Shown piece after piece: positions 5,805 through 9,014 of a DNA stretch of 64,000 nt. The notes below the pieces were generated by a model, which was not told the origin of the DNA, did not search any database, and worked only from the letters and a program-made list of their open reading frames with translations. Every line of letters begins with the position of its first letter. Position 1 is the first letter of the stretch. The stretch is from an uncultured cyanobacterium (GTDB lineage Bacteria; Cyanobacteriota; Cyanobacteriia; Cyanobacteriales; CAWCAG01), in NCBI GenBank assembly GCA_963793425.1, contig CAWCAG010000005.1, forward strand, positions 96,001 to 160,000, written 5' to 3'. Made by a program: the position numbers and the translations under genes.

Positions 5805-6148
5805 AAGTGTCTCCTGTCTATTCTATAAAGACTATCTATATCGGTCATTAGTTGTAGCCTCCTGGTACAGCAGGCATCCTATCAGATTGCATCAGACGCA
5901 ATCAGTATTATTAACTTCACTGTAGACAACCAAATCGAAACCCTTGGTAGTTGCTCATTATTCTTTATACCCCTAGCTAAGAAAATTGTGTGTTCACTGA
6001 GATTGACAACTAATGAATGTACTCTAATTCGGCCTTTTTTAACGTTAATGGCGATCTGAGCAAATATGCTTAAACTTTTATACCATCTTTAAAGTTTTCT
6101 CTTCAGGTAATGCGATCCCACAGCAAAAGGTGATACCAAAACAATTTG

Positions 6149-6290
6149 ATACCAAATCCGCTTACAAAACCCTACTCCTTACAAGTGTAGGTTTTTTACA
6201 TTTAGCGATTTTTTTGCTAGGGAGCTAAGGAGGTGGGGAGCTAGGGGGCTAGGGAGAAAACTAATAGCTAATAGCTATTAGCAACTAGCC
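6149..6290 (+). repeat. Dispersed composite repeat (ATACCAAATCCG end, GGGAGCTA octamers, CTAATAG heptamers); copy 1
   Basis: Aligns by eye with the reverse complement of 46021-46140. Confidence 0.65.
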
Positions 6291-6299
6291 AAAACGCAA

Positions 6300-6779
6300 T
6301 TAACAACGAAGAATCGACCATTGCTCAGGCTTAGACTTATTTACTACCTTCACATCTGCATAGGTTTTTATCCATAAACTCGCTCCACAATCTTTCGGCG
6401 TTTCCGGGCAATAATCGATCCGACAATAGCCGAATATCTCTAGTTCATGACCACGAATGCTCTTTGAACCATGTTTGACAGTTAGCACATCTTTCAAGGG
6501 TACTTCGGGCCCTTGCTCAACAATGGTTTTAGCGTTGGTAGTGATGTGGTTTTTATTCACATAAATAGTTTTTGGCCCCCGTCCCTTTAAAGTACTCCAA
6601 CGAGGTTTAGGTCCTCTTCTGCCGCGAGAAACCTTGGGTTTGTCACGATATAAAGGTATGACCCAGCCTGTGCGCTTTTTATAAGCCCCTTTAATACGTT
6701 GTTGTTGAAGCAAGTAGAGAACTCTTCTTTGAGAAACTCTCAAGATTTGGGCAGCGATGGAGGTGTTGACGTATTTCAT
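6300..6779 (-). CDS. Excisionase/MerR-like HTH DNA-binding protein with a C-terminal domain of unknown function
   Basis: VNTSIAAQILRVSQRRVLYLLQQQRIKGAYK..WVIP HTH, then a basic RGRRGPKPRW linker. Confidence 0.7.
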   Translation of the reverse strand: MKYVNTSIAAQILRVSQRRVLYLLQQQRIKGAYKKRTGWVIPLYRDKPKVSRGRRGPKPRWSTLKGRGPKTIYVNKNHITTNAKTIVEQGPEVPLKDVLTVKHGSKSIRGHELEIFGYCRIDYCPETPKDCGASLWIKTYADVKVVNKSKPEQWSILRC

Positions 6780-6960
6780 GGCAGAATATGGCTGGAAAAC
6801 TATTCTAGTATTGTTTTGAGCAGGAAAAGCTATGAAAAAGACAATTCTTTTTTTAAACAGAGTTGCTATCTAGCTTAACTTTTTGTCTGTGGTTATGGAA
6901 GTATGTAGGGGCAACCCGTCTCTATTATTTTAGCTACGGGCAAATTAAACTAAATATAGT

Positions 6961-6990
6961 CAATGTTTAATGTTTAATGTTTAATGTTCA
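6961..6990. repeat. Short tandem heptamer repeat (AATGTTT) x4
   Basis: caatgtttaatgtttaatgtttaatgttca, directly at the stop codon of the 6988-7671 gene. Confidence 0.85.
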
Positions 6991-7671
6991 TTGAGCAAGT
7001 AATTCAATTAGTTCATCCTTTTTCTTGTTGCTATAACCAGACATTCCTCGCTTTTTGGCCATCTTTTTCAGGTCTTTGTTTGTCATAGTGGTTAAGATTG
7101 CTGGATCTTTAATCACGTCAGGTAGAGGTTGAGGGGTTAGTTCAAAGACTTCTTTAAGGGTATCGAGTTTTTTCCCCTTGGTGATGCCACATTTAAGTTT
7201 TGGGATTTCGTTGAAGTTTTGCCAATATTGCCGAGGGGCTTCATCAATACGGTTTGTGGCTACAGCAAGTTTCACTCCCTTAAGAGGGCTACCGGGTTTT
7301 TCAATGAGATATTGTAAGGTTGCTTGAATTTCATCTCTGGTGGCTGTAGAAAGATTGATTTTGGGGATTATTTCCCCGGCAAGAGTTTTAGCTGATTGAG
7401 CAGTTTCTTCACTATCATCGGCGATAATACACCAAACCTTTTCTAAACCGGCTTCTTCTGCCACCGCGTAAATAAATAAGTTGGCGATCGCTTCATAACT
7501 ATCTTCCCCAGTTTCTTTCACAATTAAAGGAAGCCAATTTCTTCCCCCGCAATCATTAAGGGTTTTTGCTGTAGCTTTAATTAAAAATTCTGGGGCATCT
7601 GTCCCTGTACTTGGTTCAATTTCTTCCAGGTATAAGTACATCAAATTGCCAATATCGCTTAAGTTACTCAT
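6988..7671 (-). CDS. Degenerate ParB-like N-terminus, helix-hairpin-helix and Rho-N/SAP-like C-terminal DNA-binding protein
   Basis: WLPLIVKETGEDSYEAIAN...AEEAGLEKVWCII is ParB/Srx-like, KINLSTATRDEI is ComEA-like HhH, MTNKDLKKMAKKRGMSGYSNKKKDELIELL is Rho N-terminal. ATGA overlap with the upstream gene. Confidence 0.7.
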   Translation of the reverse strand: MSNLSDIGNLMYLYLEEIEPSTGTDAPEFLIKATAKTLNDCGGRNWLPLIVKETGEDSYEAIANLFIYAVAEEAGLEKVWCIIADDSEETAQSAKTLAGEIIPKINLSTATRDEIQATLQYLIEKPGSPLKGVKLAVATNRIDEAPRQYWQNFNEIPKLKCGITKGKKLDTLKEVFELTPQPLPDVIKDPAILTTMTNKDLKKMAKKRGMSGYSNKKKDELIELLAQ

Positions 7672-9014
7672 TGTAAAAAATACTCCTTCGCTAAGCTTAA
7701 GTAATAATCCCGTGCGGTTTTATTTTTGTAGGTAGCCGGGATACGAGAAAAGGCGGCATCAGCTATATGAGCGTAGCTTGGTACGTCGAAAATGTGAAGG
7801 TCTTTTTTAGATGAAGTATAACGGGGATAAAAATAGGGAAGCAAATCAAATTTATGCTCTTTCTTTGCTTTTTGGATGATGTCTTGTATTGCTTTGTTAG
7901 CTGTATTTCTAGCCGCATCAGTAATCTTTTCACCATTGAAGAAAATCGGCAGGGCAATCGGCCCTCCATCTTTACGCTTTTCTTGCACGTCTGAAATATA
8001 TTTACTGATAGCTACAGCAGCATTTTCTAATGAAAAAATATTGTTGTGTTTGGTAGGTATAAAAACCACATCTGCTGCATAGATGGCGCTAATACTAAAA
8101 AACCTCCAATTTGGAGGCGAATCAATTAAGATATAGTCGTATTGTGATTTCAAACTACCTAGAAACTGACGCAATCGAAAACGCTTAAGATTTTGCCTTA
8201 AATCATCTTCTCCCATGTTTGAAAATTCTTCGTTAGCCGGAATAACATCAAAAATAAAGTCCTTATTGAGTTTTTTGAAATGAATTTTATAAGGACGCAC
8301 TACATCCTCAAACGGAACTTGATTCTTTTTATCTGCTAAGCAAGAGTAAAAAGTTACTTTTCCTGGTTTAATGCCTAATGAGTTAGTTAAGTCTTGTTGG
8401 TTAGGATCAAAATCAACAACTAAAACCTTTTTTCCTTTAATTGCTAAGACAGAAGCAAGATTAACTGTAGTTGTTGTTTTGCCTACTCCCCCTTTATTAT
8501 TATAAACTGCAACCGTTAATGCCCTGGGAGTATTTTTAATATTATTGGCAATCTTTTGGACATTTTCATTAACATTATCCGTGGTGATTTCTAGACATTG
8601 GGTAGCAGGATAAATAACCTTACCGTGCTTTCTAAATAACTGAATATGAGACGAGTTGGTAATAATTCCCCACTGCACGCTTTTACAATTTGGCGATAAT
8701 AAATAACGACGAATTTGTTTAACCGTAGATTTATATTGAGAAGAACCTTCAGCAAGATTAACATCTTTACCCTTAAGCTCAACTAATACAGAAGGGTTAG
8801 CTTTAGTTTGGAGAAAGATATCATCCTGAGTATTATGACGCAGGGCATAATCAACTGCATCATTCCCCCTCCCTGTAGAATATTGAGGAACCCTTTCCAT
8901 AAGATCAAAACCAAGGGCATTGAGAAAATCTGGAATAAAAATCTGGTCTACAATTGCCTCTGGTTCACGGTTAGGTAAATTTAGCAATGTTTGTTTGAGG
9001 GCTTGGTCGTTCAT
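7668..9014 (-). CDS. ParA-family ATPase fused to an N-terminal HsdR_N-like PD-(D/E)xK nuclease domain
   Basis: N-terminus: FIPDFLNALGF, AVDYAL, LVELKG, QIRRY, WGIITN. C-terminus: NNKGGVGKTT (deviant Walker A), VVDFDPNQ, YILIDSPP. Confidence 0.85.
   Translation of the reverse strand: MNDQALKQTLLNLPNREPEAIVDQIFIPDFLNALGFDLMERVPQYSTGRGNDAVDYALRHNTQDDIFLQTKANPSVLVELKGKDVNLAEGSSQYKSTVKQIRRYLLSPNCKSVQWGIITNSSHIQLFRKHGKVIYPATQCLEITTDNVNENVQKIANNIKNTPRALTVAVYNNKGGVGKTTTTVNLASVLAIKGKKVLVVDFDPNQQDLTNSLGIKPGKVTFYSCLADKKNQVPFEDVVRPYKIHFKKLNKDFIFDVIPANEEFSNMGEDDLRQNLKRFRLRQFLGSLKSQYDYILIDSPPNWRFFSISAIYAADVVFIPTKHNNIFSLENAAVAISKYISDVQEKRKDGGPIALPIFFNGEKITDAARNTANKAIQDIIQKAKKEHKFDLLPYFYPRYTSSKKDLHIFDVPSYAHIADAAFSRIPATYKNKTARDYYLSLAKEYFLQ

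Follow-up and report, generated by a model that had tools for sequence, protein, structure and literature searches.

A cyanobacterial nuclease–ParA and ParB-like gene pair with the features of the predicted effector-ParAB immune systems

The closest described relative of the locus considered here is the effector-ParAB system, which is built on the ConB1 clade of ParA ATPases and is predicted to be immune in function (Li, Burroughs and Aravind, bioRxiv 10.64898/2026.10.19.760177, 22 Oct 2026). According to the available part of that preprint, its ParA and ParB genes are coupled in operons and the ParB is likely enzymatically inactive; an effector, most commonly of restriction-endonuclease fold, stands N-terminal to ParA; HhH and Rho-N-type HeH domains C-terminal to ParB replace the helix-turn-helix (HTH); a conserved valine in Walker A marks the ConB1 clade; and the systems are over-represented in multicellular taxa such as cyanobacteria. 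In the model put forward there, ParB recognises invader DNA by a variable domain, clamps on it and brings in ParA to form a static coat by which replication or transcription is blocked, with the effector as a force multiplier or suicide back-up. Here we describe a gene pair that, judged from its sequence, is a typical member of this class, which is predicted to act on invading DNA (phages and plasmids). It lies in a 64,000-nucleotide stretch from an uncultured cyanobacterium (contig CAWCAG010000005.1, positions 96,001 to 160,000; hereafter the window, to which positions refer) and consists of gene 1, coding for a predicted HsdR_N-type nuclease domain fused to a ParA/Soj-type ATPase, and gene 2, coding for a degenerate ParB-like partner. 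A reading made earlier from the sequence letters (the original prediction) had taken the pair for a candidate undescribed DNA-surveillance or defence system.

The two-gene cassette is real and intact. Gene 1 (7668..9014, minus strand; 448 amino acids (aa)) and gene 2 (6988..7671, minus strand; 227 aa) were delimited from their open reading frames (ORFs) and translations, and their start and stop codons overlap in an ATGA at 7668..7671, minus strand, read as tcat on the plus strand, just as the original prediction had it. The G+C content is 36.1% in gene 1 and 39.9% in gene 2, with 40.4% for the window. The operonic coupling of effector-ParAB is seen both in this overlap and in the homologues, as gene 2 directly follows gene 1 in 78 of 80 genome loci; the other two (L051 and L081) end inside gene 1 at a contig end, and linkage is complete at the testable cyanobacterial loci (78/78). 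The same ATGA overlap joins the genes in 48 of 76 loci, while 13 have overlaps of 1–13 nucleotides and 15 have spacers of 2–53 nucleotides; starts were extrapolated from alignments here, and two of the 78 loci (L065 and L069) were set aside, their gene 1 match breaking off early. In both of these, from Fischerella muscicola (L065, 6001-7471) and a Nostoc metagenome-assembled genome (MAG; L069, 6001-7330), the match stops near residue 365 and gene 2 follows; the gene 1 copies probably contain a frameshift or an interruption. Clustering of 876 flanking ORFs revealed no third conserved gene in the 80 loci, the largest further cluster being present in nine.

The N-terminal domain of gene 1 (residues 1-145; 8580..9014, minus strand) corresponds to the effector of effector-ParAB and is a putative PD-(D/E)xK nuclease of the HsdR_N type. 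With the whole protein as query, the Pfam family HSDR_N scored 24.7 bits, just under its cut-off of 25.1; the domain alone exceeded the cut-off with 26.6 bits, and all 27 N-domains of relatives that were scanned matched HSDR_N_2 at E<=0.01 (best 2.1e-9). The motifs read in gene 1 are D55, E79-L-K81, Q100xxxY104 and W115GIITN120, with E19, D55, E79 and K81 as putative catalytic residues, to which Q100xxxY104 is added. We take the D...ExK and QxxxY set to be that of HsdR, the Pfam match serving as the test. Residues D55, E79, K81, Q100 and N120 are kept in all 75 aligned gene 1 sequences, Y104 and E19 in 73 of them, and identity to the window protein in this set goes down to 43% (tblastn with gene 1). 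A search of PDB sequences with the N-domain returned nothing at E<=10; the nuclease fold is predicted from the Pfam match and motif conservation.

The remainder of gene 1 (residues 166-448; 7671..8519, minus strand) is a ParA ATPase domain, matched by AAA_31 at 123 bits over residues 167-346. Its deviant Walker A (KGGVGKT, with signature lysine K174), A' (DFD) and B motifs show no or almost no variation across 38 aligned sequences, made up of the window protein and 37 picked from the 120 listed of 3921 matches. The valine that marks ConB1 is present as V177 within KGGVGKT in 38/38. The AlphaFold model of gene 1 has a predicted local distance difference test score (pLDDT) of 90.6 and a predicted TM-score of 0.91; in Foldseek its ATPase part was closest to H. 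pylori Soj (6iub, E 3.5e-14), followed by ParA (8ray) and McdA (6non), and the whole model gave matches of ParA/MinD type only. Among the matches listed, full-length relatives of gene 1 at 56-92% identity occur in many cyanobacteria, several on megabase contigs.

Gene 2, as far as its structure model (pLDDT 88.9) can tell, has the N-terminal domain fold of ParB but neither arginine box nor HTH. The Pfam family ParB_N scored 16.6 bits, short of its cut-off of 26.3, and a PDB search with the gene 2 profile gave nothing significant (best E 0.1); we nevertheless consider the protein ParB-like because its modelled fold matches ParB. Within the ParB/Srx-like domain (residues 1-103; 7363..7671, minus strand), residues 9-102 superpose on CDP-bound M. 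xanthus ParB (7bnk) with Z 11.8 and a root-mean-square deviation (r.m.s.d.) of 2.3 Å over 90 residues; the ParB-type match in Foldseek has an E value of 8.2e-7, and the next structural matches are Noc, KorB, PadC and sulfiredoxin. Canonical ParB proteins carry an arginine-rich box, in whose slot gene 2 has A-N-L-F, with N64 and F66 invariant in 37 sequences; no arginine occurs in its translation between R44 and R112. Both the fold and the missing arginine motif had been read correctly in the original prediction. The partner is thus predicted to be enzymatically inactive, in agreement with what is said of the ParB of effector-ParAB.

Two further modules follow that domain and correspond to the HhH and HeH domains of effector-ParAB. 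The middle one (residues 104-180; 7132..7362, minus strand) aligns to (HhH)2 proteins and not to the HTH domain of ParB: residues 103-179 match the (HhH)2 domain of ComEA (8dss_B) at a moderate level, with Z 6.5 and r.m.s.d. 2.1 Å over 61 residues, and UvrC-C and XPF less well. It contains two hairpin-like segments, INLSTATRDEI and LKCGITKGKKL, which presumably fit HhH signatures. The C-terminal one (residues 181-227; 6991..7131, minus strand) is a linker with a Rho_N/HeH (SAP-like) tail; Rho_N is matched at residues 193-223 with 25.6 bits against a cut-off of 24.9, and structural matches of residues 181-227 are weak (DEK SAP region, Z 3.6). The replacement of the HTH by HhH and Rho-N/SAP modules, also proposed at the outset, is borne out by these matches. 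Relatives of gene 2 keep about 70% identity across orders. In the partner on Acaryochloris plasmid pREB8 (L091, 6001-6921; 306 aa) the second HhH-like stretch (LTKLKCGLT...) is present twice, a duplication of the DNA-binding module. A predicted complex of the two proteins scored 0.23 against a mark of 0.32 and counts as evidence neither way.

Together with the cyanobacterial bias (74/80 loci, counted without enrichment statistics), all six features compared agree with effector-ParAB, and the available part of the preprint shows no difference in architecture from the window pair. What differs is the emphasis, the preprint placing static coating first and the effector in a second line, and the original prediction placing direct cleavage first. 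As the class is already in print, the pair in the window adds an instance to it and not a discovery, and the claim that the system was undescribed does not stand.

The matches come mainly from cyanobacteria. Besides the 74 loci that are cyanobacterial by label, four come from uncultured MAGs (L010, L064, L075 and L082), one from Tatlockia (L060) and one from Ignavibacteria (L051); Atlas clusters of gene 2 are likewise mostly from Cyanobacteriota. The pairs labelled Tatlockia (Legionellales) and Ignavibacteria nest among cyanobacterial sequences and are probably mis-binned cyanobacterial contigs. In a sample of 401 genomes of the phylum, gene 2 (counted at E<=1e-10) was found in 50 of the 394 of good quality and in 32 of 152 genera. 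Within single genera it was present in 11/19, 2/9 and 5/6 genomes, and one family had none (0/33). Many matches of gene 2 in complete genomes lie on the main contig, and most homologues are chromosomal; none of 50,697 GenBank phage records matched gene 2. In a FastTree phylogeny of 75 gene 1 sequences (five of the 79 cluster members, with lengths outside 420-520 aa, were left out) the Nostocales do not form one group but at least two separate clades, and a single MAG has two copies that are placed in different clades. A patchy distribution and a tree discordant with taxonomy fit an accessory cassette that moves. In one Nostoc clade we observed a conserved leader (TTGTCC ... GGGAACACTAGA ... 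CTGGAAG ... ATG) about 60 nucleotides before gene 1, in loci L015, L022, L025, L026, L054, L055, L057, L069 and L083, and partly in L030 (Leptolyngbya); it could be a promoter with a 5' untranslated region or a regulatory site.

The nuclease domain family is narrow, since its profile retrieved only 133 proteins (E<=0.001) among 1.84 billion representatives. Among the 48 representatives of at least 380 aa, D55 is present in 42, E79 in 43 and K81 in 44. A Pfam scan of 30 of the 133 proteins, chosen for odd length or weak score, revealed several fusions. An MkoA-like superfamily 1 (SF1) helicase is combined with the N-domain and ParA in P0298, and DUF559 is added to the same helicase, N-domain and ParA in P0315; the nuclease triad is degenerate in both. 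In P0366, where the N-domain–ParA module is fused to a zinc ribbon, the triad is lost, and in P0318, with an added HEPN_Swt1 RNase domain, it is retained. The HEPN_Swt1 RNase domain is a typical effector of conflict systems. No relatives of P0318 appeared in a metagenome scan with the HEPN fusion as query. A divergent subfamily is carried by a Pseudanabaena 12.6-kb plasmid, plasmid 10 of Nostoc UHCC 0870 and L. boryana pLBA (pairs at L105 10781-12574, L106 7494-9456 and L107 5472-7453). Its partners are short (134-180 aa) and lack the Rho_N tail, and its triad appears degenerate in profile alignments that are weak (E 1e-8 to 1e-11), so the loss is provisional. As the triad is invariant in the main family and lost where another effector is present or in divergent plasmid-borne forms, the pattern argues that catalysis would matter in members of the type found in the window.

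Other systems are less similar. With classical type I ParABS (Soj/Spo0J; type Ia) the pair shares gene order, coupling, ParA fold, the deviant Walker A with its signature lysine and the ParB N-domain fold; unlike ParABS, its partner has neither arginine box nor HTH, centromere-like repeats were not found, and the N-terminal extension of its ParA is a predicted nuclease-fold domain with intact catalytic residues. Gene 1 has the Pfam match and the D...ExK and QxxxY motifs in common with HsdR of type I restriction–modification (HSDR_N/HSDR_N_2), but has a ParA ATPase in place of the superfamily 2 helicase/translocase motor, and neither HsdM nor HsdS is encoded nearby. The antiphage system Menshen (NsnABC; PMC12065111) follows a like logic: a DNA-binding protein of the ParB superfamily acts as sensor, a P-loop ATPase as transducer and a nuclease as effector. 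Its authors, in the available part of the article, draw the ParB–ParA analogy themselves. The components of Menshen (ParB-DUF262, an ABC/SMC-like ATPase and a separate effector gene) are, however, unrelated to those of the pair, and it has three genes instead of two. The PADLOC candidate PDC-M28B, a profile of 438 positions, matches gene 1 and also distant relatives of it, but only a P-loop stretch aligns (positions 109-166; 38.5 bits with gene 1); PDC-M28 was not mentioned in the literature searched. In the available part of a survey of the ParB-CTPase fold by Kaljevic et al. (10.1101/2025.10.10.680097) the words 'hairpin', 'Rho', 'HsdR' and 'SAP' do not occur. Apart from the preprint of Li, Burroughs and Aravind, the literature searched gave no description of this fusion.

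An anti-invader role explains these observations best, and we hold it at about even confidence. The ParB-like protein, with its fold kept and its arginine box and HTH absent, would no longer be a clamp driven by cytidine triphosphate (CTP) and specific for parS; it would bind DNA without sequence specificity through (HhH)2 and HeH, and recruit or regulate the ParA partner. ATP-bound ParA, whose ATPase motifs are intact, would dimerise on DNA like other ParA proteins, and dimerisation may place two N-terminal HsdR-type nuclease domains, with their strictly conserved catalytic residues, on that DNA, where they would cut invading DNA or, in the last instance, the chromosome of the host. The pair has no linked modification enzyme. 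Strict linkage, the lack of a third conserved gene, patchy spread and tree discordance make the pair a self-contained accessory cassette.

Several findings weigh against immunity. No core component of a named defence system is encoded among the 145 immediate neighbours; PADLOC profiles match 11 of them at 1e-10, all generic (UvrA or ABC ATPases (mad3/mad8), TPR, desaturase-like proteins, a TnpB fragment and Uma2), and most neighbours are housekeeping genes such as those for CP47, DnaB, UvrA, DnaK, NdhJ, GlyS and TrmD. By manual sorting of Pfam matches, without a background rate, 25 of the 145 are toxin–antitoxin (TA), mobile or conflict-flavoured. In PADLOC-DB 2.0.0, gene 2 has no match and gene 1 matches only the P-loop of PDC-M28B, with no full-length system match. 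No signature of an arms race was seen, all domains being strongly and evenly conserved: mean pairwise identity is 57% in the nuclease, 58% in ParA, 64% in ParB-N, 70% in (HhH)2, the most conserved, and 52% in the tail. The family also lives on mobile DNA. Gene 2 was found on 8 of 72,556 PLSDB plasmids, all cyanobacterial, and on a mobile-element-like 58-kb IMG/VR contig the pair is accompanied by XRE/ImmA-type regulators, a Rad52-like recombinase and a HigB-like gene; a divergent relative, moreover, is the sole partition-like locus of a 12.6-kb plasmid. Support for immunity is computational throughout, the case made in the available part of the preprint included, and immunity is accordingly named here as a predicted function.

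Presence on plasmids could also mean that the pair serves to maintain or partition mobile DNA. It would then be a divergent type I ParAB from plasmids and integrative elements of cyanobacteria, its nuclease-fold N-domain would have taken a DNA-binding or regulatory role, and its chromosomal copies would have been left by integration; we regard this as fairly unlikely. The N-terminal extension of type Ia ParA proteins does have a DNA-binding or regulatory role, the order is parA then parB with translational coupling, and the ParA domain of gene 1 is nearest to Soj/ParA structures. Besides its presence on the eight plasmids, on two of which, from Nostoc, it adjoins a small site-specific integrase, and on the 58-kb contig, the Pseudanabaena 12.6-kb CyRepA1 plasmid has the divergent pair as the only ParA/ParB-like match among its 18 proteins, and because this degenerate-triad pair is the only partition-like locus there, a maintenance role stays a live rival. 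Yet every sequence of the main family keeps the triad, which appears degenerate only in the divergent subfamily on plasmids, whereas a domain with a purely structural part would be expected to show the reverse; and the partner has lost the arginine box and HTH. Nor did centromere-like repeats stand out in the flanks: 9-mers repeated at least three times occur upstream of 7/72 loci and downstream of 11/77, against 28/303 control windows, and several are HIP1-like, in a test blind to lone or intragenic sites. A search for operators or centromeres gave shared 8- and 10-mers that were HIP1-like (GCGATCGC) or confined to about ten closely related Nostoc loci. ParM/StbA is also encoded on the Nostoc plasmids that carry the pair, one of which has a small ParA besides; a second small ParA pair is present on pREB8, a canonical ParA–ParB stands beside the divergent pair on plasmid 10, and the genome of the window encodes canonical ParB elsewhere, on two small contigs. 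Most copies, finally, stand among housekeeping genes with no plasmid backbone nearby. A working continuum from plasmid partition to immunity, in which catalytically dead forms with short partners may segregate small plasmids and the intact form of the window may cut foreign replicons onto which it loads, as a nuclease-based incompatibility or exclusion determinant and not a usual antiphage system, seems to us unlikely.

It is quite improbable that the pair is a selfish, TA-like addiction cassette, with the nuclease–ParA protein as a latent toxin restrained by the ParB-like one, so that a cell deprived of the cassette or the partner would die. Such a reading would be served by a tightly overlapping, strictly linked two-gene unit that is patchy, occurs on plasmids and chromosomes and varies in position, with the 25 TA or mobile neighbours counted above; but both proteins are far larger than those of classical type II pairs, the putative toxin comes first and the partner second, the sequences are unusually well conserved across orders, and simple neutralisation leaves an intact ATPase and three DNA-binding modules unexplained. 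That same conservation, the mostly housekeeping neighbours, the likeness of the (HhH)2 module to that of ComEA and the same site beside the glycogen phosphorylase gene in a genome of the same genus could point to a housekeeping role in large, often polyploid cyanobacteria, such as processing of chromosome copies, repair or the handling of DNA acquired by transformation. We consider this very improbable, as no copy of the pair was found in 344 of the 394 good-quality genomes from the phylum and in 8 of the 19 from one genus, its gene tree is at odds with taxonomy and it occurs on plasmids.

Around the pair, in positions 1-21.4 kb of the window, Pfam revealed only housekeeping genes, and no methyltransferase, HsdS or replication protein, which confirms what the original prediction had noted; no repeat arrays were found adjoining the pair. 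The neighbours code for a DUF1611 protein, an alanine-racemase-like protein, glycogen phosphorylase, a ChpXY CO2-hydration protein, a fasciclin protein, MutS2, a TPR protein, a HAS-barrel protein, a PAS histidine kinase and L-aspartate oxidase. In the genome of the same genus mentioned above (G401) the pair occupies the same site, with 89% DNA identity, about 140 bp from the phosphorylase gene. A 159-aa ORF immediately downstream of the pair (6300-6779, minus strand) with an HTH-like N-terminus and no Pfam match was ruled out as a component of the system, because it is missing at the G401 site, multi-copy in the genome and not beside the pair in the 80 loci. Its DNA (~6230-6850) recurs at many sites in the genome of the window with 67-84% identity, and the ORF looks like a small repeated, possibly mobile, gene. 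The stretch around it (~6082-6997) is missing at this site in G401. A tandem repeat of the heptamer AATGTTT (about four units; 6962-6989) extends into the stop codon of gene 2, and a similar stretch is present elsewhere in G401. Canonical ParB_N genes of the genome of the window (G000) are on contigs C2 (62 kb) and C4 (44.6 kb), which are likely plasmids; with this family model its large contigs gave a single weak match (26 bits; a frame of 129 aa on C7) and no canonical chromosomal ParB.

Overall, the anatomy given in the original prediction was right in every part tested, the fusion of HsdR_N-like motifs to a ParA ATPase included, and its interpretation is partly supported. On three of the findings that it had named as speaking against it, the data went the other way: D55, E79, K81 and Q100 are conserved in 75/75 sequences, the genes are linked in all testable loci, and homologues are mostly chromosomal instead of plasmid partition loci. 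Its defence reading coincides with an independent computational prediction, that of the preprint in its available part, but finds no association with known defence genes among the 145 neighbours; PADLOC, which it had suggested as a check, gave neither a full-length system match for either gene nor a defence-island signal among those neighbours. The mechanism it proposed, with a partner that would sense foreign DNA and ParA dimers that would pair two nucleases for a double-strand cut, is pure conjecture.

The present analysis adds to the class the strict linkage of two genes, the invariance of nuclease residues, the lack of a defence-island or arms-race signal and a plasmid subfamily that appears catalytically degenerate, which leaves partition a viable reading. 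The family occurs commonly in filamentous cyanobacteria. To our knowledge, few immune systems have been tested in these organisms so far. If an anti-invader role is true, no modification enzyme would mark self, which raises the question of how a non-specific DNA binder distinguishes invader from host. The pair would then be a defence or exclusion system built from partition machinery, in which the ParA dimer would act as an ATP-gated scaffold that pairs two restriction-type nuclease domains.

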